Positions 599-56,566 of a DNA stretch of 64,000 bases are shown piece after piece. Made by a program: the position numbers and the translations under genes. Below the pieces are notes generated by a model, which made no database searches, was not told the DNA's origin, and saw nothing but the letters and a program-made list of their open reading frames with translations. Source of the stretch: Nitrospirota bacterium (GTDB lineage Bacteria > Nitrospirota > UBA9217); contig CAVUCU010000005.1 of assembly GCA_963740085.1 (NCBI GenBank), positions 64,001 through 128,000 on the forward strand. Reading direction: 5' to 3'. Within the stretch, counting starts at the first letter, position 1. Every line of letters starts with the position of its first letter.

Positions 599-3442
599 TT
601 ATCTGTCCAGCATTTCCCTCACCTTCTTCAGGAGCGCCTGTGGCGACATCGGTTTAATTATCATGGCCGAGCCTGTTTCGATCAAGTCCTTCTCTCGAAG
701 CATATCCAGCGAATATCCGCTTACAAAGAGCACCGGGACCGCGGGCATCACCTTCCTGATCTCTTCATAAGCCTCTCTGCCGCTCTTCTTCGGCATCATA
801 ATGTCGAATAGAAGCAGCTGAATTCTGTCCTTGTTTTCCATGAATTTCGTCACTGCCTCTGCTCCGTCATTCGCCTGAATAACGGTATAGCCCATTTGCT
901 CAAGAACAACTACATTTAAATTCCGCATGTTCACATCATCCTCTGCCAAAAGGATTGTTCCCGTGCCGCCTTTTTGATATTCAACTTCCAGTGTCTTCCG
1001 CCTTTCCACTGCCGAGGCTTTGATCAGCGGGAGATAGATCCGGAAGGTCGTGCCTTTGCCCGGTTCACTGTATACGTTTATGAAACCCTCATTCTGTTTG
1101 AGAATGCCGTACACCATGGCCAACCCGAGCCCTGTTCCCTTGCCGACCTCCTTGGTCGTGAAAAAAGGCTCAAATATATTTTTCCTTGTTTCCTCGTTCA
1201 TCCCCACGCCAGTGTCGGTGGCAGAGATCATGGCATAGGTTCCCGGCTTCCCATACCCGTGGGCCGACACAAACCCGCTATCCATTTTCATAATCGATGT
1301 TTCGATCATGAATGAACCGCCATGCGGCATTGCATCCCGCGCATTCGTTGCAAGATTCATCATTACCTGCTCCAACTGGCCTGCGTCGGCCATGACGGTC
1401 AATTCACCCCCAGCAAGGGCCAAGCGGACCGCAACATCCTCACCGATAATCCGAATGAGAAATTTCTCTACTTTTTTGAGTATGCTATGCAGGTCAACAG
1501 GTTTACGGTCAATGATCTGCTTGCGGCTGAAGGTAAGAAGACTCTGGGTGAGTGAGGCAGCGCGGTCTGCTGACTCCAGCATGTGTTCTATATTCAGCCG
1601 TAAAGGATCGTCCTTCGGCATTTTCATGAGCGTAATGTGTCCGTAGCCGATGATGGCGGACAGGATATTATTGAAATCGTGGGCAATGCCTCCGGCAAGC
1701 GTACCAATGCTCTCCATCTTTTGAGCATGGCGAAGCTGGCTCTCCAAGGCTCTTTTTTCCGTTATGTCGTTGATGACCTCGATGACGGATTGTACTTCAC
1801 CGGATGGACTCTTCATCGCGTATGTCCTTACCTCCACCTGTCTCTGTTTGCCTTTATCATCCGTATGCGTGTGGACAGCAAGACCCGGCTCTCCTGTCTC
1901 GAATGTGCTTTTGCACGCGCAAACATGTCCGGGTTCATGGCATGGCTGTGTTGCATGATGCGATATCTCGTAACAATGTTTTCCAATAATATGCCCCAGC
2001 GATTCCCCTGCTTGCTCGCAGTACGCACGGTTGGCCGATAGTATGCGATAATCGCTATCAATCACCACAAATGCCTGATCAACGCTGGCAAGAATGTCCT
2101 CAATGAACTTTTCGGATTTTCGCAGCGTCTCTTCCGCCCGTTTGCGCTCGGTAATGTCACGGAAGATACCGACGAGGTACTGCTTTCCGCCCAACGTCAC
2201 CGAGGTGGCATTGATGTCCGCGTAAAAGACCGAGCCATCCTTTCTCAACATCGGGGCCTCAGATGCAAGCAAAATCTCGCCGCGCAGCTGTTTTTCAAAG
2301 AGCTCCCGGATGGCGGGCAGGTCCTCTTTCGGGTGAATATCATCAACACGCAGACCAACGATCTCATCGCGGGTATATCCAAGCATGATGCACATGGATT
2401 TATTTGCCTCAATATGCCTCTTGGTCTCCGCGTCGGCAATCATGATCCCGTCGATCGCATTTTCGAATATGGACCGGAACTTTTCCTCGCTTTCCCGCAG
2501 ACTCTCTTCACTTCGTTGACGTCCTTCGATGGAGCGGAGCAGTTCCCCGTTAATTCTGAGAATTGATTTATACCGCCAGAATGCCATGACGAAGAAGACG
2601 ATAATTAGGACAAGTCCGCTGACTGTAAGTATTCTATTGCGCGTCCAGTACGGTACCGGCACGCCGTACCATTTGCGATAAATCTGCTCATATTCGGCGC
2701 TTCCAGTAAAGCTATGCAGGGCATTGTTCAAGCGTCCAAGTAATTGCACGTTTCCCTTGCGTACCACCAAACATCTTTCCTGCTCCGCAAAGGGCTTTCC
2801 GATCTTCTTGATGCGGTCTTCCAGTCGGGCTTCCCGCACATTTTTTTGAATTTGGGTTTCCTCTCCGGCGAATATATCAATTTCCCCAGCGAGAAGGCTG
2901 AAAATTCCTTCCAGATAAGAACCATCAATAGAGAGATTCACGCCTGGCTTGTTTTTTAGTTGCTCGTAGGATAGACTGCCTTTGACAACGCCTACAGTGT
3001 GCCCTCGAGGTGCGGTATCGGGATTAATCTGGCTTTCAGAACGGACAAAATAGGAAAGGTAGGCTACATCTATCGGGGAACTGAATAGTAATATCTTTTC
3101 ACGTTCCGCGCTCTTGAGCAGAACGGTAATATCCGCCTCGCCGGTCTCTACCGAAGTTATCAACGCCGGCCAACCGGGTTCACAAATATATCTAAGCTCC
3201 AATCCCGCACGAGTGGCCACGCTATTGATAATATCCACCGCGAATCCGGAGGGCTTGTCGGTATTTTTGTCCCAAAAATTAACCGGCGAATAGGTACAAT
3301 GGATAACCACTGTCGCCTTTTCAGGCGCTATCTGCTTATTAGAAGATTCAGCCCATGATAAAGAGACGCAGGCTAAGACTATGGAAAAGATAATGATAAT
3401 AGGTACCAAAAACTTCCTAATTGGGCGCTTGGAATCAGGCAA
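599..3442 (-). CDS. Hybrid sensor histidine kinase/response regulator (periplasmic SBP family 3 domain, TM, 2 PAS, HisKA/HATPase, receiver)
   Basis: ORF 599..3457; H-box LAGGIAHDFNN, G-boxes DTGVGM/GTGLGL, C-terminal receiver (LLAEDD...DIMMP). TTG start at 3442 chosen because it follows an AAGGAGG RBS. Confidence 0.9.
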   Translation of the reverse strand: MPDSKRPIRKFLVPIIIIFSIVLACVSLSWAESSNKQIAPEKATVVIHCTYSPVNFWDKNTDKPSGFAVDIINSVATRAGLELRYICEPGWPALITSVETGEADITVLLKSAEREKILLFSSPIDVAYLSYFVRSESQINPDTAPRGHTVGVVKGSLSYEQLKNKPGVNLSIDGSYLEGIFSLLAGEIDIFAGEETQIQKNVREARLEDRIKKIGKPFAEQERCLVVRKGNVQLLGRLNNALHSFTGSAEYEQIYRKWYGVPVPYWTRNRILTVSGLVLIIVFFVMAFWRYKSILRINGELLRSIEGRQRSEESLRESEEKFRSIFENAIDGIMIADAETKRHIEANKSMCIMLGYTRDEIVGLRVDDIHPKEDLPAIRELFEKQLRGEILLASEAPMLRKDGSVFYADINATSVTLGGKQYLVGIFRDITERKRAEETLRKSEKFIEDILASVDQAFVVIDSDYRILSANRAYCEQAGESLGHIIGKHCYEISHHATQPCHEPGHVCACKSTFETGEPGLAVHTHTDDKGKQRQVEVRTYAMKSPSGEVQSVIEVINDITEKRALESQLRHAQKMESIGTLAGGIAHDFNNILSAIIGYGHITLMKMPKDDPLRLNIEHMLESADRAASLTQSLLTFSRKQIIDRKPVDLHSILKKVEKFLIRIIGEDVAVRLALAGGELTVMADAGQLEQVMMNLATNARDAMPHGGSFMIETSIMKMDSGFVSAHGYGKPGTYAMISATDTGVGMNEETRKNIFEPFFTTKEVGKGTGLGLAMVYGILKQNEGFINVYSEPGKGTTFRIYLPLIKASAVERRKTLEVEYQKGGTGTILLAEDDVNMRNLNVVVLEQMGYTVIQANDGAEAVTKFMENKDRIQLLLFDIMMPKKSGREAYEEIRKVMPAVPVLFVSGYSLDMLREKDLIETGSAMIIKPMSPQALLKKVREMLDR

Positions 3443-3830
3443 GCTAACCTCCTTCAAAACAAGAGCGTTGTTTGCTCTTGGAAATGACTATTTTATACTT
3501 TGTAAGTTGTGGGACAACGACCCCATTGACACATGACGTTATGTTAAGGAGAAGCAGGAACATTAAGGGTTAGACGGAACATTTCAATCTCCCTCACGGA
3601 GTGATTATAACATAATGGCGCAACGTGCAATGCTTATTCGAGTTGGATCGTAGTCGGATGATAAAGAGATTCAGACATGGGTTCAATAATACCCGAACAT
3701 TACATCCGGACATCTGGTAGATTCGGCGTTTTAGAAGCATCCTCTATAGGGTATTGTACTGGTATTCCAGCAAATACGGAATGTAACTTGATATGTTTCA
3801 ACAAAATGCAACTACAACGAGTACAGTCAA

Positions 3831-5027
3831 CTATGTGCAGCTCACCGATGATGCCAGATATCTCTGTTTGTGTGACAACATGGCAAAAAGCATTCGAGTA
3901 AGTTTATGCATTGTTGCCATGACTGCTTTCTTATAAGGCAATCCAGCTTGTTTCTTTTTCTGGTAATACGCTCGGAATTTATCGTTATTGAGGATCACAT
4001 TTACCGTCATGAGCCAAAGAACACGTCGAAGGTGCCTATTTCCTCTCTTTGAGATTCTGCTCTTTCCCTCGTACTTGCCGGATTGATACACTGTTGGATC
4101 AATCCCTGCGTAGGCAATCAAATGTTTGTGCGTCTCGTAGCTCTCGATTCGTCCTAGCTCAGCCAAAAAAGTGGTACCGGTTCCGTTACCGATGCCTACC
4201 ACGGATGTTACAATCTCCAGGTCTTCGACCATCAGAGAGTTGCAGTAGTCCGTGAGCATGACCGTCAACTCATCTCGACGATCCTCCAGATGGATTAGTG
4301 TCGAGATTTTCCCCCGGAGGATAGTCTCTTTGGCTGGACTGACCGTCCCAACCGAGTTCTTGGCCAGTTTGATGATATCCTCCGCCGTAAAGGTTGATAT
4401 TCTGCTCCCTGAACCTCGTGGCTCCATAGCTTTAGCTATTGCCCGGGGTTTGGCAAGCACAATCAAACGAGCCGAGGGAAACTTCTTCAGAAATTCAAGC
4501 ATGATGCCCGAATAGACGCCGCAGAGCCGCTCAAGCTCAGGAAAGGTCGTCTGCAAGACCCGCTTGATCTCGGTCTTGGTCGCGGAAATCAAATGGCTCA
4601 GCGACTCTCTCTCCCGGGCGAGATCTCGCATATCCTGCATATCCTGGCTGACGGACATCTGAGAAATCTTATCCGTGTGAGCCAGCAGGAACTGGGCGAT
4701 CGTCAGTGCGTCTTTCTTATCGGTCTTGGTCTTCCGGAGCGTAAGTTTGGCAAAGTTCGAAATCAACAGCGGGTTAATGACTACGGCTCGGATGCCCTGA
4801 GACGTGAGATAAGAGAATAGATTGATGTGATAGCAGCCCGTGGACTCCATGCCGACGATGACCGTAGAAACATATGGTTGCTGTGCCATTATCATCTTCA
4901 GCAACTTCGAGAACCCATCACTGTCCATGGTACAATCTTGGGCGAAACAGCGTGTCCCTTTGCCGTCAAGGCCAGCGGCAGAAAAGGACTCTTTGGAAAC
5001 ATCGACGCCAACGGTCAAACTTTCCAT
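3831..5027 (-). CDS. IS110-family DEDD recombinase/transposase (398 aa)
   Basis: RuvC-like motifs GVDVSK, GMESTG, KTDKKD; C-terminal AGIDP..YQSGK with conserved Ser; GGAGGAGG RBS before ATG at 5027. Confidence 0.95.
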   Translation of the reverse strand: MESLTVGVDVSKESFSAAGLDGKGTRCFAQDCTMDSDGFSKLLKMIMAQQPYVSTVIVGMESTGCYHINLFSYLTSQGIRAVVINPLLISNFAKLTLRKTKTDKKDALTIAQFLLAHTDKISQMSVSQDMQDMRDLARERESLSHLISATKTEIKRVLQTTFPELERLCGVYSGIMLEFLKKFPSARLIVLAKPRAIAKAMEPRGSGSRISTFTAEDIIKLAKNSVGTVSPAKETILRGKISTLIHLEDRRDELTVMLTDYCNSLMVEDLEIVTSVVGIGNGTGTTFLAELGRIESYETHKHLIAYAGIDPTVYQSGKYEGKSRISKRGNRHLRRVLWLMTVNVILNNDKFRAYYQKKKQAGLPYKKAVMATMHKLTRMLFAMLSHKQRYLASSVSCT

Positions 5028-5059
5028 TGATCCCTCCTCCATGCAAGATTTAGACAGGC

Positions 5060-5201
5060 AGGAAACGCCTCCCGACCAATCCTCCATCGTTACCAGGGCT
5101 CTTTGGCCCAATCAACCTATCATGGCTATGGGAGGCAGGGAACAAACTGTACTGAGGGTTCAAGGACCCAGGAAGTAAACTAAGTTCTCCTGCCCTTCTA
5201 T
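5060..5201 (-). ncRNA. Putative IS110 bridge RNA (target-binding and donor-binding loops); ends approximate
   Basis: UACUUCCU (5177-5170) and AGUACAG (5153-5147) match the left and right flanks around the CT core; GGUUGAUU (5117-5110) and GGAG (5085-5082) match the IS ends; each guide pair encloses a hairpin and is closed by a stem. Confidence 0.8.
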
Positions 5202-5207
5202 GACATC

Positions 5208-5232
5208 TATATAGCACAACTAATCGTAGGAG
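5208..5232 (-). promoter_or_regulatory. -10 half (TG-n-TATATA) of the IS110 circle-junction promoter; the -35 half TTGACT is at 3830-3825
   Basis: Exactly 17 nt (5230-5214) lie between the core and TATATA (5213-5208). Confidence 0.75.
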
Positions 5233-5667
5233 GAAGTACTTCTTGCCGTTCGAATATAGCATAGAATGAATATTTCAAGAAGCAATTTACGATTCTAAGA
5301 GCAGCGTATCGATTGGGCTGAGCATAGTGAGCCAACATCTTCTTCAAATTGCGGAAAGCAGCCTCCAACCTCCCGGCTCTCACCGCGTACCTGAATGAAC
5401 TCGTAATAACGACGGCGGCTCGCACTCGATGACCATCGCGCGCCCGGTGCCGGGATGACGAAAGCTCAGAATTGCGGCATGAAGATGGTAGCCCGGGTCG
5501 CCGGGCAAGGCATGTGTATCCGGCAGGGGCAAACCGCCTGCGCCGTACAGAGGATCGCCAACCAGAGGGTGTCCCGAGGATGCCAGGTGAATGCGGATCT
5601 GGTGTGGACGGCCTGTCTCAATTCGGACATCACAGAGGAAGGAATCTTCGCGGCGTTCGATGACGGT
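5233..5667. repeat. Near-identical direct duplicate of 12165..12606 (3' part of rluA plus downstream DNA)
   Basis: Read by eye: identical except about 2 substitutions and one 7-nt unit (CAGCCTC) difference. Confidence 0.92.
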
Positions 5668-5695: not shown

Positions 5696-6366
5696 TTATT
5701 CCTTCTTTAAAGCTGCGGCCACAACTTCTATTTCTTTCCAAACATCCTTGCTACTCCGGAGATACACAGTCACAGCCGCGGGGTCTTTCCGCAAATACGC
5801 CGCGATCTCTCGCCCTGTATAACCATATTCCTTCGCTAGAATACTGAAGAGTGGTCGAGCAGTCAAGATATTTGTGGTTCTCTCCATGATCGCAGATCCT
5901 CAAGCGAAACGGCGCACTGCCGAGCAATCTCTCCTGCTAGCCGGGGCAAGACGTCTTCCTGCTTGATTGTTGCTCCGTCGTTCATGAACATCGAGTACTG
6001 TTTTCGTGCTCTGCCTTTGTTCTCGGAAAACATTCTGAGAACAAGGTCGGTGTCAAGCAATTCTGACAGCTCCGTTTTTGTGCCCACGGTCTTGTACCTT
6101 CGGTTATAGTACATGGTATACCTCTGGTTAACGCCCTGAAGGATTTTGGAGAGCGGAATGGCCCTGGTTTCAATCAGAAGGTGCACATGGTTGGACATGA
6201 GTATGTATGCATAGAGATGAAAATGATAGCGTTGTTTGTAGCCGATAAGTATTTCAAGAAATTTACGATAATCGAGGGGATCTTTAAATATCTTCTGCTT
6301 CTGGTTTCCTCTGGTGATTACATGATAAAAGGCGCCTTCGTATTCAATTCGGGGTTTTCTAGCCAT
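5696..6366 (-). pseudogene. REP-associated tyrosine transposase (RAYT)-like gene with C-terminal HTH; internal deletion plus frameshift
   Basis: MARKPR...YHVITRGN...MSNHVHLL (HUH motif); the GHLFQGRY...RYIHLNP catalytic-Tyr segment is missing after YKTVG; HTH (YTGREIAAYLRKD) in a second frame, 5696..5887. Confidence 0.85.
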
Positions 6367-10249: not shown

Positions 10250-11920
10250 ATAGGCGGCGGCCCAAATAGCAGACACCGGGGAGACGAGGTTCGAATAGCC
10301 GGCATGGAGGGAGAGGGCGGCGGTCCCGGGGCGCCGGGCCGCCGAAGAAAGCGTGGCGCTGAGACGCGGGTGGCATAGGAGACCCCCGGCCCCGGCGCGG
10401 GCCCAGAGCAGACGCAGACCCGCCCGGCCCGTCACACCCGCCGGCCCCCCAGGAGCGGCCGGGGCCCCGGCCGACCCGCCGCCCCGCGCCCCCGGCCGCG
10501 GCGATACCGGGCAGCGCCCGCCGGCCGAGCGGCCTGCCCGGGGAGAACACCGGCGGCCGGCCGCGAGCCGGCAGCGGGCCCGCACCGGCGACCAGGCGGC
10601 CCGGCGGCGGGGCGGCCGAGCGGGACGAGCGCGAGAAGCCGGCCGCGGGCGACGGGGGCGCGGGGCCGGCGACCCGGGCCGAAGACCCCCGGCCCGACGC
10701 GGCCCCCGCGGCCGACGCCGGCCCCGGAGCCCGCCGACGCGGTAGAGAGCCGGTGCCGCCCGGCGGAGAGCCCGCGCCCCCCCCGCCGCGCCGCCGGCGG
10801 CAGGGCAGCGCGCAGAGACGCGCGCCCGGAATAGCGGCGGGCCGGCCCGCCAGAGACCGACCGCCGGCCGCCGGCCCCGGAAGAGCGGCCGCGGCTGACG
10901 TGCCGATGTGGCCGACGCGCCCGGCGAGAGCGCCACCCCCGGGCCGGCGCCGCCGCCGCCCGCGATATACGGTGGCGCGATGCCCGACCGATTGACGGAC
11001 GGGCGGTTGGCCCCCACGGACCCGACGGCGCCGACGATGTCGGCCGAGGAGGCGCGGGCCGAGATGAACCGCCGCCGCCGCACCCTGCCGCCCCCGCGCT
11101 CCGCCGGTCAGTGATACCGAGGCGGTGACCCGCCGGCCGCCCTGGCGAGGCGCCGCGGTCTGACCCGCGCTGCTCCTCAATAGGTGGCGCCTCCGACCTG
11201 GCCGCGGCTCTTCGATCCCCCAGCGGCCGATGGGGAGCTAAACTGCCGGATCCGCGCTGAGCACCGATGGCGCGGGAAGTCAGTACCTGCGCCGGTGCTG
11301 AGGGCGGGCAAAGAGATGCCACGGCCGGTAGCGAGGGTCCCTGAGCCGCCACCCTGGCCGGCCTGGCCGCCACCGATATAATCGATCGGGATGAACCGCC
11401 GCCCCAGGTGGGACCGTCGAACGGATGCCGAGTGGATCGTGACGAGTGCCGATGGTGAGCCGGGAAGTGAGGGGCCAGGGCGCAGGTGAGCCGATATCCC
11501 CGTCGCCAAGAAGATGGCGGGACTCGCCGAAGGCCAGCCCGATAATGGTGCACCGGCCCGAGGGAGATGTACGTCCCGTGAGGCGGATGCCGAGCCCTCT
11601 CCCGAACGCCCACGGCAGACGAGCCGATATCGGGAATGGACGCGGCGCGCTCCCGCCGGGACGGTCAGTGCAAGCACGGAACCCCCCCCCGGGCAGCCGT
11701 GGCAGATAGTGCCTGTTCTCTGTGCCAAGTGCGCGCAGTCGGCCGGGCCAGGGAGTGGGACCACACGGTCACTGCGCCGGTAGCGCGGCTGGATATCTCT
11801 GACCCTGCGATGGGCCATGGCCGAGACTGCAGCCCGCCATACCCTTGGGATGACGCCGAAAGCCTTGTCCGATGATCCAGACCTCCGGCGGCAGGTCGTG
11901 ACTCTTACAGATCCCAGTCG
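10250..11920 (-). other. Garbled A/T-dropout copy of the fadE gene (corresponds to about 54190..56138); probable low-quality-read artefact
   Basis: Collinear matching words, e.g. CCTGCGCCGGTGCTGAGGGCGGGCA and GGATCGTGACGAGTGCCGATGGTGA; translation fragment LATGRGISLPALSTGAG is shared. Confidence 0.85.
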
Positions 11921-12164
<244 letters not shown>

Positions 12165-12606
12165 GAAGTACTTCTTGCCGTTCGAATATAGCATAAAATG
12201 AATATTTCAAGAAGCAATTTACGATTCTAAGAGCAGCGTATCGATTGGGCTGAGCATAGTGAGCCAACATCTTCTTCAAATTGCGGAAAGCAGCCTCCAG
12301 CCTCCAACCTCCCGGCTCTCACCGCGTACCTGGATGAACTCGTAATAACGACGGCGGCTCGCACTCGATGACCATCGCGCGCCCGGTGCCGGGATGACGA
12401 AAGCTCAGAATTGCGGCATGAAGATGGTAGCCCGGGTCGCCGGGCAAGGCATGTGTATCCGGCAGGGGCAAACCGCCTGCGCCGTACAGAGGATCGCCAA
12501 CCAGAGGGTGTCCCGAGGATGCCAGGTGAATGCGGATCTGGTGTGGACGGCCTGTCTCAATTCGGACATCACAGAGGAAGGAATCTTCGCGGCGTTCGAT
12601 GACGGT
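12165..12606. repeat. Second copy of the 5233..5667 duplication
   Basis: Direct sequence comparison. Confidence 0.92.
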
Positions 12607-54157: not shown

Positions 54158-56566
54158 TTACAACTTTGGGAAATCATCCACCCGGATCACCTCAGCGCGG
54201 GCAGCCAAAGCTAGACGCAAAATTTCCGCCTCGGCCACTGTCACTACCCCTGCCCTGGCCCCCTCATCAAGCAGCAGGGCATCGGGTTGCTCCTTCAATT
54301 TGCCGGTCCGCACCGCATCCCGCAGTTTTTTCTCCACCGGCTCAGCGGCGATGACTTTGGGCAGCGCGTCTTCCAGCCGGCCCAGCGGCTCTGTCAAACT
54401 CTTGGGGAGAAACAGCCCGGCTGTCAAACGGTCCCTTACTTGGGACGGTTCAAGCAGGATGCCTGCAACCCGGTGACCAAGACGGTCACTCGGTCCGGAA
54501 TAGGGCCGGCCGAGCGGGAAAACGAGCAGTCTGAGAAGCCAGGCCGCAGGGCGATTCGGGAAGTTGCGCAGGAGGCCGGCGAAACTCTCCTGGATGGAAA
54601 CAAGGATCTCTTCGCAGGCCCATTTGACCAGCGGCCATTCATCCTGCGGCCGGTGCCGGTCCTCATATAGCTTGAGCACGGCCGACAACAGGTAGAGATT
54701 GCTGAGGATGTCCGCCAAACGGCCGGAGAGCTTTTCCTTGCGCTTCAAATTCCCGCCTAAAAGCATCAGTGCCGCATCGGCGGTCAGGGCAAAAGCTGCG
54801 CTCAGACGGGTGGCCTTCTGGAAATACCGGCGGGCCGGCCCGCCAGGGACTCTGGCCAGCCGTCCGCCGGTCAGTCCCAGGAAAAGAGTCCGCGCCGCGT
54901 TGCTGATGAAGAAGCCGATGTGGCCAAACAGTGCCCGGTCGAAAAGCGTCAACCCCTTCCGTTGGTCCGGGTCAGCCGCCGCCCGCATCTCTTGCTGAAT
55001 ATACGGATGGCAGCGAATGGCACCTTGGCCGAATATGATCATGGAACGGGTCAAGATATTGGCCCCTTCTACCGTGATCCCGATCGGCGCCGACTGATAG
55101 ATCCGGCCGAGAAAGTTGCGCGGGCCAAGGATGATACCGCCACCACCCTGCACATCCATGCCGTCATTGACTACTCTGCGCATCCGTTCGGTCAGATGAT
55201 ATTTGACGATGGCGGTGATCACCGCCGGTTTCCTGCCTTGGTCGATGGCGCCGCAGGTCATGATCCGCGCTGCATCCATCAGGTAGGTGGTGCCTCCGAT
55301 CCTGGCCAGTGGCTCTTCGATCCCCTCAAAGCGGCCGATGGGAAGTTTGAACTGCTTTCGGATCCGTGCATGAGCACCGATGGCGCGGGAAGTCAGTTTA
55401 CCTGCGCCGGTGCTGAGGGCGGGCAGTGAGATGCCACGGCCGGTAGCGAGGGTCTCCATGAGCATCCGCCATCCCTTTCCGGCCATAGTATCGCCACCGA
55501 TTATAAAATCGATCGGGATGAACACATCCTTGCCCCAGGTGGGACCATTCTGAAACGGAATGCCGAGAGGATCGTGACGAGTGCCGATGGTGATGCCGGA
55601 AAGTTTTGCGGGGACCAGGGCGCAGGTGATGCCGATATCCTCCTTGTCGCCAAGGAGATGGTCGGGATCATGCAGCCTGAAGGCCAACCCGATAATGGTC
55701 GCAACCGGCCCGAGGGTGATGTATCGTTTTCCCCAGTTGAGCCGGATCCCGAGCGTCTCTTTCCCCTCGAACGCCCCATGGCAGACGATGCCAATATCGG
55801 GAACGGACGCGGCGTCGCTTCCCGCCTCGGGCCCGGTCAGGGCAAAGCAAGGGACTTCTTCCCCCTTGGCAAGCCGCGGCAGATAGAGATTTTTTTGTTG
55901 TTGCGTGCCGTAATGCAGCAGCAGTTCGGCGGGGCCAAGGGAGTTGGGGACCATCACGGTCACTGCGGCAGTGATGCTGCGGCTGGAGATCTTCATGATC
56001 ACCTGCGAATGAGCCAAGGCCGAGAACTGCAGCCCGCCGTACTCCTTCGGTATGATCATGCCGAAAAAGCCCCTGTCCTTGATGAATTTCCAGACCTCCA
56101 GCGGCAGGTCGTGCAGTTCGTTACAGATCTTCCAGTCATCGAGCATCAGGCAAAGCTCTTCCACCGGTCCATCGAGGAATGCCTGCTCTTCCAGCGTCAG
56201 TGCAGGCGCGGGTTCGGCCAGAAGTTTTTGCCAATTCGGCCGGCCACTGAAGAGTTCTCCGTCCCACCATACGGTGCCGGCTTCAAGTGCTTCCCGTTCT
56301 GTCTGGGACATGGGGGGGAGCAATTTTCGGAACAGGCCAAGCAGCGGTCTGCTCAGGAGCATACGGCGGAGCGGCATAACATTCAAGATCGCCGCAGCCA
56401 GCATGAAGATCAACCAGACAAGCATGTTTCCCCGGCCTGCAACGGCTAAATACCCCAGGAATGCCGCAACCACAGTGGTCCAGACCCAGAGCTTAACACG
56501 GAAATATGCCAATAACCAGACCAGCGAAAGCAACAGAACAACCGCCATAACGCCCTCTTTTGTCAT
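54158..56566 (-). CDS. fadE: Acyl-CoA dehydrogenase, long FadE type
   Basis: VMVPNSLGPAELL, CFALTGPEAGSDA, ITVEGANILTR. Confidence 0.92.
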   Translation of the reverse strand: MTKEGVMAVVLLLSLVWLLAYFRVKLWVWTTVVAAFLGYLAVAGRGNMLVWLIFMLAAAILNVMPLRRMLLSRPLLGLFRKLLPPMSQTEREALEAGTVWWDGELFSGRPNWQKLLAEPAPALTLEEQAFLDGPVEELCLMLDDWKICNELHDLPLEVWKFIKDRGFFGMIIPKEYGGLQFSALAHSQVIMKISSRSITAAVTVMVPNSLGPAELLLHYGTQQQKNLYLPRLAKGEEVPCFALTGPEAGSDAASVPDIGIVCHGAFEGKETLGIRLNWGKRYITLGPVATIIGLAFRLHDPDHLLGDKEDIGITCALVPAKLSGITIGTRHDPLGIPFQNGPTWGKDVFIPIDFIIGGDTMAGKGWRMLMETLATGRGISLPALSTGAGKLTSRAIGAHARIRKQFKLPIGRFEGIEEPLARIGGTTYLMDAARIMTCGAIDQGRKPAVITAIVKYHLTERMRRVVNDGMDVQGGGGIILGPRNFLGRIYQSAPIGITVEGANILTRSMIIFGQGAIRCHPYIQQEMRAAADPDQRKGLTLFDRALFGHIGFFISNAARTLFLGLTGGRLARVPGGPARRYFQKATRLSAAFALTADAALMLLGGNLKRKEKLSGRLADILSNLYLLSAVLKLYEDRHRPQDEWPLVKWACEEILVSIQESFAGLLRNFPNRPAAWLLRLLVFPLGRPYSGPSDRLGHRVAGILLEPSQVRDRLTAGLFLPKSLTEPLGRLEDALPKVIAAEPVEKKLRDAVRTGKLKEQPDALLLDEGARAGVVTVAEAEILRLALAARAEVIRVDDFPKL

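Follow-up and report, generated by a model that had tools for sequence, protein, structure and literature searches.

A probable bridge RNA in the leader of an IS110-group element from a Nitrospirota bacterium, with guides that match the element's insertion site and ends

Does the noncoding leader of a mobile element spell out the place at which that element is inserted? The question is raised by an IS110-group element on the minus strand of a 64,000-nt stretch of Nitrospirota bacterium DNA (assembly GCA_963740085.1, contig CAVUCU010000005.1, positions 64,001 to 128,000), referred to here as the window; coordinates are those of the window unless a contig is named. A preliminary description, made from the letters alone, had read the leader as a bispecific bridge RNA of the IS110/IS621 type. 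Family membership, layout and guide logic have each passed independent tests, and all the strings named in that description were found where it had placed them. The best explanation, to which a probability of about 0.9 is given, is that the locus holds a functional-looking IS110-group element with a bridge RNA that specifies both its insertion site and its own ends; as part of that explanation, the recombinase would use the leader-encoded RNA. Bridge RNAs have been predicted for 85.7% of IS110-group elements (PMC11208160).

The element, its guides and its recombinase

The anatomy of the element was read directly from the sequence. On the minus strand it occupies 5230..3827 (1404 bp without the core), with the same core dinucleotide, CT, at both junctions (5232-5231 and 3826-3825). 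The left junction reads AAGTACTTC-CT at 5241-5231, after which the element starts with CCTACG at 5230; the right junction reads ATAGTTGA (3834-3827), CT (3826-3825) and GTACTCG (3824-3818). Viewed more widely, the left junction is ...GGCAAGAAGTACTTC-CT (to 5241-5231) followed from 5230 by CCTACGATTAG..., and the right junction is ...CACATAGTTGA-CT (right core, 3826-3825) followed by GTACTCGTTG.... The noncoding left end is long, at 203 nt (5230-5028), and the right end consists of the 4 nt past the stop codon (3830-3827).

Bases from both sides of this site recur in the leader. The left target guide (LTG), UACUUCCU (5177-5170), equals the left target plus core at 8/8 positions, and the right target guide (RTG), AGUACAG (5153-5147), is the reverse complement of CT+GTACT at 7/7, so that the claimed identity of the target guides with the element's own insertion site is upheld. 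In 200,000 shuffled versions of the 191-nt leader (mononucleotide shuffling), the 8-mer arose 595 times, the 7-mer 1,824 times and both together only 7 times; chance is therefore no explanation for the guides. The donor guides match the element's own ends, again as first described: the left donor guide (LDG), GGUUGAUU (5117-5110), agrees with the right end AGTTGACT at 6/8 positions, where the two mismatches would be wobble pairs (G.T and U.G) against the bottom strand, and GGAG (5085-5082), complementary to CTCC, can be extended to a right donor guide (RDG), CGAUGGAG (5089-5082), which agrees at 6/8 positions with the complement of CTCCTACG. According to the published sense rule, the LTG and LDG share the sense of the top strand, to which the RTG and RDG are complementary, the left guides pairing with the bottom strand and the right guides with the top strand, with the core included in all four (PMC11208160); the guides in the window follow this rule. 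Rfam gave 0 matches at E <=10 on either strand of 3600-5500, so that none of its 4227 models fits the RNA of this leader.

The features on which the argument draws are as follows, with the basis for each in brackets where one applies.

5231..5241, minus: left target AAGTACTTC with the left CT core, 5232-5231 (sequence, empty-site contig)
3827..5230, minus: IS110-group element, 1404 bp without core (boundaries set by the empty-site contig)
5208..5216, minus: extended -10 box, made up of TG (5216-5215), c and TATATA (5213-5208) (sequence and family leaders)
5053..5199, minus: bridge RNA as modelled, 147 nt, the ends being modelled rather than mapped (covariance model R1, 158.5 bits; pair covariation)
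5188..5194, minus: GGCAGGA, 5' strand of a proposed closing helix, with 5063-5057 or the internal CCUGCC (5139-5134) as its partner
5057..5063, minus: UCCUGCC, 3' strand of the proposed closing helix (folding, alignment)
5184..5187, minus: target-loop stem GAAC, partner GUUC at 5143-5140 (covariation)
5170..5177, minus: LTG UACUUCCU, core CU included (sequence, covariation)
5156..5169, minus: target-loop hairpin GGGUCCUUGAACCC, GGGU..ACCC (RNAfold, alignment)
5147..5153, minus: RTG AGUACAG, of which AG pairs with the core (sequence, covariation)
5145..5146, minus: candidate handshake guide UU after the RTG, its first U complementary to the A preceding the donor core
5130..5136, minus: donor-loop stem GCCUCCC, partner GGGAGGC at 5073-5067 (folding, alignment)
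5110..5117, minus: LDG GGUUGAUU (sequence, family conservation)
5096..5109, minus: donor-loop hairpin GGGCCAAAGAGCCC, GGGC..GCCC (two covarying pairs)
5082..5089, minus: RDG CGAUGGAG, of which GGAG pairs with CTCC and the middle AU is mismatched
5080..5081, minus: candidate handshake guide GA, complementary to the final TC of the left target
5033..5040, minus: ribosome-binding site GGAGGAGG (sequence; conserved in the family alignment)
3831..5027, minus: recombinase gene, 398 aa (Pfam, NF033542, catalytic motifs)
3825..3834, minus: right end ATAGTTGA with the right core CT, containing the stop codon TAG (3833-3831) and TTGACT (3830-3825)
3818..3824, minus: right target GTACTCG, its first five bases matched by the RTG (sequence, empty-site contig)

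The 398-aa product belongs to the DEDD/Ser recombinases, with PF01548 (the N-terminal DEDD RuvC-like domain) at 2.6e-37 over residues 6-163 and PF02371 (the C-terminal Tnp domain) at 9.5e-25 over residues 271-356. The NCBI model NF033542, 'IS110 family RNA-guided transposase', scored 236 bits against a cut-off of 140. Only two solved structures were matched, both distantly: ISCro4 (9t56) at 1.3e-16 and IS621 at 7.6e-14. A motif search and alignment to ISCro4 found VGVD9, GME61, KTD103KKD106 and YQS316G all present, the last (S316-G317) aligned with YESG of ISCro4; they align with the catalytic residues of IS621, and the roles of the DEDD residues and the Ser are taken from the study of that element (PMC11208158).

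Guide and flank variation among relatives

A scan of species-representative genomes confirmed 277 relatives, of which the best 80 (47-83% identity) were kept; all 80 are from metagenome-assembled genomes, labelled mostly Nitrospirota, Thermodesulfovibrionales or Deltaproteobacteria. The 'poorly sampled lineage' of the preliminary description is accordingly apt in part only: relatives are numerous, and the best of them come from metagenomes. With the window included there were 81 sources; the alignment took in the 75 with at least 260 nt of upstream sequence, the 6 with <260 nt being set aside. Covariation was assessed in the 66 aligned elements with both flanks. The remaining nine comprised five in which the pattern used found no right-end motif (L006, L022, L039, L054 and L073), two with leaders that could not be aligned (L014 and L031), one masked with N (L037) and one whose right flank is cut by a contig end (L061).

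Guides and flanks were found to covary across these 66 homologues, a check that had been proposed together with the original reading. Positions -7 to -1 of the left target (LT) matched the LTG at 5.00/7 (permuted 3.40 ± 0.14, maximum 3.97), and positions +1 to +5 of the right target (RT) matched the reverse complement of the RTG at 3.95/5 (permuted 2.30 ± 0.13, maximum 2.86); 0/10,000 re-pairings of guides with flanks reached the observed LT or RT value, counts that are not probabilities, since related elements are not independent. When the flank was slid by 1-3 nt, scores fell to 1.4-2.7 (LT) and 1.1-1.8 (RT). A stricter filter (n=59, without L007, L008, L018, L041 and three others) gave 4.95 vs 3.44 for LT and 4.00 vs 2.31 for RT. 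The signal lay at LT -1 to -5 and RT +1 to +5, with LT -6 and -7 at expectation, indicating a natural target of about 5 + 2 + 5 nt. Two points carry the covariation argument: that guide and flank are identical in the correct sense, and that this holds for the diverged copies L060, L063 and L074, which share one genome.

Covariation on the donor side is rare because the element ends are conserved: the right end AGTTGACT was present in 64/75 elements and the left end started with CCTAC in 68/73, and the donor guides were correspondingly conserved. Right end and LDG had nevertheless changed together in L061 (AGTTAACT with GGUUAAUU) and in L039 (AGATGACT with GGAUGAUU). A sister clade (L007, L008 and L018) has a CA core at both junctions; here the final bases of the RTG are UG in L007 and L018, and the RDG is GGUG in all three, whereas the LTG and LDG are unchanged, still with CU and UU.

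The base after GGAG of the RDG was Watson-Crick complementary to LT(-1) in 58/66 elements (permuted mean 0.70 ± 0.02, 0/10,000), and the base after the RTG was U in 65/66, complementary to the invariant A preceding the donor core. Both observations agree with the handshake guides of IS621 (PMC11208158). At the second handshake position complementarity was only 0.59, and no claim is made for it.

Two relics were recovered from related genomes. In L086 (1712-1856, minus strand) the left end and the RNA survive together with ~190 nt of the gene, at 90% identity; in L087 (1505-1649, minus strand) a full-scoring RNA (149 bits) is followed by no recombinase frame. The flanks of both match their own LTGs.

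The fold of the leader RNA

The RNAfold minimum-energy structure contains the two hairpins first proposed, GGGU..ACCC (5169-5156) and GGGC..GCCC (5109-5096), but the two closing stems of that proposal overlap: GUUC-CCUGCC and GCCUCCC share GCC (5136-5134), and so cannot both form in full. Pairing was examined on a MAFFT alignment of 63 distinct leaders, from which L034 (internal deletion) and 9 exact duplicates were excluded. On this alignment the layout first proposed was 96.7% paired, and 10 of its 22 pairs changed on both sides, compared with 5.3 ± 1.0 when shuffled (0/500) and 1-4 with slid partners. Covariation was clearest in the GAAC/GUUC stem, the second pair of which is GC in 31 sequences and AU in 25, and in the two hairpins, that of the donor loop having two covarying pairs (GC 45 / AU 15 and UA 41 / CG 21).

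What the 5' strand pairs with admits of two answers. In one layout, a helix of 5' GGCAGGA with 3' UCCUGCC closes a three-way junction and leaves GCCUCCC/GGGAGGC free to form the donor stem in full. In the other, stem-loops stand in tandem as in IS621: the internal CCUGCC (5139-5134) is the partner of 5' GGCAGG, only UCCC/GGGA is left of the donor stem, and the 3' CCUGCC has another role. It is the tandem fold that accounts for the 96.7% pairing and the 10/22 both-sided changes on the MAFFT alignment; L071 and L083 moreover show a compensatory A-U to G-C change at its helix, and the IS621 RNA is described as a 5' stem-loop, target loop, linker and donor loop (PMC11208158). The three-way junction scores similarly on the same alignment, however, and leaves fewer unpaired cells on an alignment that was fitted to it and leans its way. 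The internal copy of the helix strand is broken in ~10-12 sequences (9 + 11 unpaired cells at two positions in one alignment, 10 + 12 in another). In these the 3' copy remains paired, with 0 + 0 unpaired cells in the alignment fitted to the three-way structure. The full GCCUCCC/GGGAGGC donor stem needs bases that the tandem fold consumes. Partition-function folding likewise prefers the 3' partner, in 60/63 sequences, with a mean pairing probability of 0.88 vs 0.05 for the internal one. The modelling thus favours a 5'-3' closing helix with a three-way junction, and the tandem fold is a possible, somewhat doubtful alternative. A third, partial pairing of the 5' strand, given by RNAalifold on the MAFFT alignment, was not adopted. 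Among the papers listed by a literature search for a three-way junction in bridge RNAs, none dealt with bridge-RNA architecture to judge by title and abstract, although the layout may still have been published.

Covariance model R1 matched 79/81 sources and lay just upstream of the gene in all 76 for which both could be placed; in the genome of the window it matched only the three element copies. That genome also holds a fourth, different IS110-family gene at C1:1497367-1497807 (plus strand; PF01548, 56.6 bits; open frame of 402 aa). R1 had no match at this gene, which presumably has its own kind of guide RNA.

Copies, mobility and place among IS110 elements

The assembly (7 contigs, 3.46 Mb) contains three copies of the element, 100% identical. 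The copy on contig C7 is independent, and its site, AAAAGTACTTC-CT and CT-GTAGTCTGC on either side of the element, has the same left target and core as the window and a right target matching at 4/5 positions. The copy on C6 does not count as a separate insertion, since C6:10024-15695 and C5:67823-73485 are variants of each other at 99.4%. The whole of C6 (15,695 bp) is collinear with C5:67823-81658 at 94-99% identity and has the look of a strain-variant contig rather than a separate locus, and the element's copy number therefore appears inflated. C6 also has a paralogous or allelic empty site, AAGTGCTTTCCGTACTCC.

Contigs of four public metagenome runs were aligned to the locus, and regions that contigs of runs X2, X3 and X5 left uncovered were given no weight. 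A 325-nt contig from run X1 represents the empty site. In it, one base alone separates 3825 from 5233, so that 1407 nt are skipped for a net loss of 1406 (1404 + CT), which places the element's boundaries exactly where they had first been put. In a second X1 contig the left end of the element is joined to sequence identical to C5:197359-197382, only the left junction being covered. In the assembly that site is empty and reads GATTCCTTC-CT-GTACTTAAC, with 7/8 LTG bases and 5/5 right-target bases; the X1 contig is an insertion polymorphism in a guide-matching site. Together with the C7 copy, it bears out the expectation that other copies would lie in sites like TACTTC-CT-GTACT. The element was not found in the 8 genomes of the same genus that were searched, and in the same family only fragments of it were found, in 2/24 genomes searched, which fits a recently acquired mobile element. 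Its open frame, catalytic motifs and signs of recent movement all suggest that it is intact and recently mobile.

The two ends, read separately, also suggest a promoter. The right end with the core forms TTGACT (3830-3825), and the left end has TGcTATATA, the hexamer of which lies 17 nt from the element's first base; the two meet only in the excised circle, so that a -35/-10 promoter with 17-nt spacing would exist only there. In the integrated state the -35 position is occupied by CTTCCT. Among 72 family leaders, 68 have a -10-like hexamer (>=4/6) at 16-19 nt from the left end, 70 have their best match at 17-18 nt and 41 have the TG. The putative circle-junction promoter would match the pattern of IS621, for which a junction promoter has been published (PMC11208160, PMC11208158), as has weak expression from integrated copies (PMC13626964).

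From these parts the following course of events may be proposed. The target loop, with LTG UACUUCCU and RTG AGUACAG, would read the bottom strand on the left side of the core and the top strand on its right, so specifying a target of approximately (T)ACTTC-CT-GTACT. The donor loop, with LDG GGUUGAUU and RDG CGAUGGAG, would read the joined circle ends, AGTTGA-CT-CCTACG. Formation of the circle would put TTGACT 17 nt upstream of TGcTATATA, creating a sigma-70-type promoter for RNA and recombinase, and recombination at the CT core would then insert the circle. The scheme presupposes that the leader would be transcribed, that its RNA would bind the protein and that the chemistry would proceed; its guides may, on the same footing, be programmable.

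A number of observations weigh against this explanation. The empty-site contig has the core TT, not CT (minus-strand TACTTC-TT-GTACT), and thus departs in this respect from the empty allele first described; it also shows 8 differences from the window in 324 aligned nt, on which ground it is attributed to a diverged strain. The TT core is not taken as refuting the guide reading, since conservation of the core is weaker at its first base and TT cores supported recombination by IS621 (PMC11208158). At C1:954358 (plus strand) a site, TACTTCCTGTACT, matches both target guides perfectly over 13 nt, yet is unoccupied. Scanning the integrated locus for promoters gave none for the minus strand of the left end. 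Each side of the donor loop pairs imperfectly (6/8), and the AU/TA mismatch of the RDG is conserved in the family without compensation. The fold of the whole leader (-58.2 kcal/mol, z = -0.75) is no more stable than those of shuffles and energy alone is therefore no evidence, although an unremarkable energy is to be expected of an RNA built around large open loops. Relatives share guides and target types, so that the permutation counts overstate independence, and some elements fit poorly (LT 0/7 in L053, 1/7 in L011 and 1/7 in L021; RT 0/5 in L008).

It might be supposed that the anatomy has been read correctly but that this copy is a silent relic which no longer moves, as the lack of a called promoter in the integrated state, the unoccupied perfect site at C1:954358 and the occurrence among relatives of the truncated L086 and of L087, with RNA but no gene, would allow. 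Such a relic would hardly be expected to have an open frame, all five catalytic motifs and three copies at 100% identity, nor to be inserted in the X1 contig at a site where the assembly lacks it; absence from the 8 same-genus genomes searched points to recent arrival and not to old decay. This account is considered improbable. Less credible still is the idea that the recombinase alone picks the target and that the leader matches are a by-product of subterminal repeats or lineage-specific sequence, with no working guide RNA: a widely shared CTTCCT does account for much of the match (conservation alone gives 3.4/7 after permutation), but the flanks lie outside the element and yet equal the leader position by position where guides differ (ATATCAC in both guide and flank of L009, AATTCT in both in L049, and the three elements L060, L063 and L074 in one genome), the sense rule holds, with left guides in the same sense and right guides in reverse complement, the core change to CA is mirrored in RTG and RDG, and a code residing in the protein would not yield sequence identity with the leader.

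The surroundings of the element are repetitive. A ~430-nt repeat, at the end of which the insertion site lies, occurs at window positions 5233-5658 and 12165-12597 (99-100% identical, with a 7-nt indel); C6 carries it too, once at 100% identity and once at 94.5%, the latter copy having an empty site that is non-cognate. Homopolymers fill 11921-12164 on the plus strand (168 C at 11921-12088 and 56 A at 12101-12156, besides shorter runs) and directly abut the second copy of this left-flank repeat, which stops at ...AAGTACTTC; they look like an assembly artefact, perhaps a collapsed further copy of the element. Just upstream of the target-site repeat, 5863-6366 (minus strand) encodes a 167-aa IS200-like Y1 transposase (PF01797, 6.8e-13) with a weak match, below the cut-off, to REP-associated tyrosine transposases. 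Downstream of the insertion, 599-3457 (minus strand) encodes a 952-aa hybrid sensor kinase with solute-binding, PAS, HisKA, HATPase and receiver domains; its start is ~370 nt downstream of the element, which could influence how this gene is expressed. Two direct-repeat pairs, of 56 nt (96%) and 42 nt (90%), link 11284-11466 with 55399-55601, ~44 kb apart.

The closest described parallel is IS621 of E. coli (PMC11208160, PMC11208158). Shared with it are a DEDD RuvC-like domain and a Tnp domain with catalytic Ser; a long, RNA-encoding left end, a very short right end and a CT core on both sides; target and donor loops, in each of which a hairpin is flanked by a left guide of the same sense and a right guide in reverse complement; and discontinuous RDG pairing with an unpaired middle dinucleotide, together with handshake positions after the RTG and RDG. 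The two differ in several ways. The proteins are distant (E = 7.6e-14, with only the Tnp domain aligned; 398 aa here compared with a solved chain of 328 aa), the RTG here comprises the core and ~5 nt where that of wild-type IS621 has 4 nt, the LDG here has a conserved U opposite the first core base, and a 5'-3' closing helix is predicted here in place of the tandem layout. ISCro4 (9t56), compared by protein alone, is the best solved-structure match (E = 1.3e-16), with the RuvC-like and Tnp domains aligned and the motifs in register, but at low identity. The IS1111 group shares the recombinase family and the RNA-guided logic, but has its RNA in a long right end and subterminal inverted repeats of 7-17 bp (PMC11208160); with a right end of 4 nt past the stop codon and the RNA in its left end, the present element does not belong to that group. 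No inverted repeats of at least 40 nt were reported in the window, shorter subterminal ones not having been searched for specifically.

It is well supported that the element joins the bridge-RNA IS110 group described in 2024, and no new kind of system is involved; to general biology it adds little beyond the 2024 predictions for most IS110 elements. Its value is that of a well-documented natural example, a bridge-RNA element that could be read correctly from raw sequence and in which the guides and donor ends are consistent with the empty site and the fresh insertion. Its source lies among lineages of anaerobic soil and sediment, remote from E. coli, and its protein is distant from those of IS621 and ISCro4; the 79 related RNAs with naturally varied guides, now aligned, constitute a covariation data set and a source of candidate orthologues for bridge editing. 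It may also be suggested, tentatively, that these elements form a subfamily associated with Nitrospirota and Desulfobacterota, in which a 5'-3' helix ties target and donor arms into a three-way junction and whose CA clade follows its core through the top-strand guides only. The second core base is described as an almost invariant T around IS621. If the suggestion is true, the top-strand guides alone would suffice to re-program that base in nature, and tool building would gain a structurally distinct scaffold from the subfamily.

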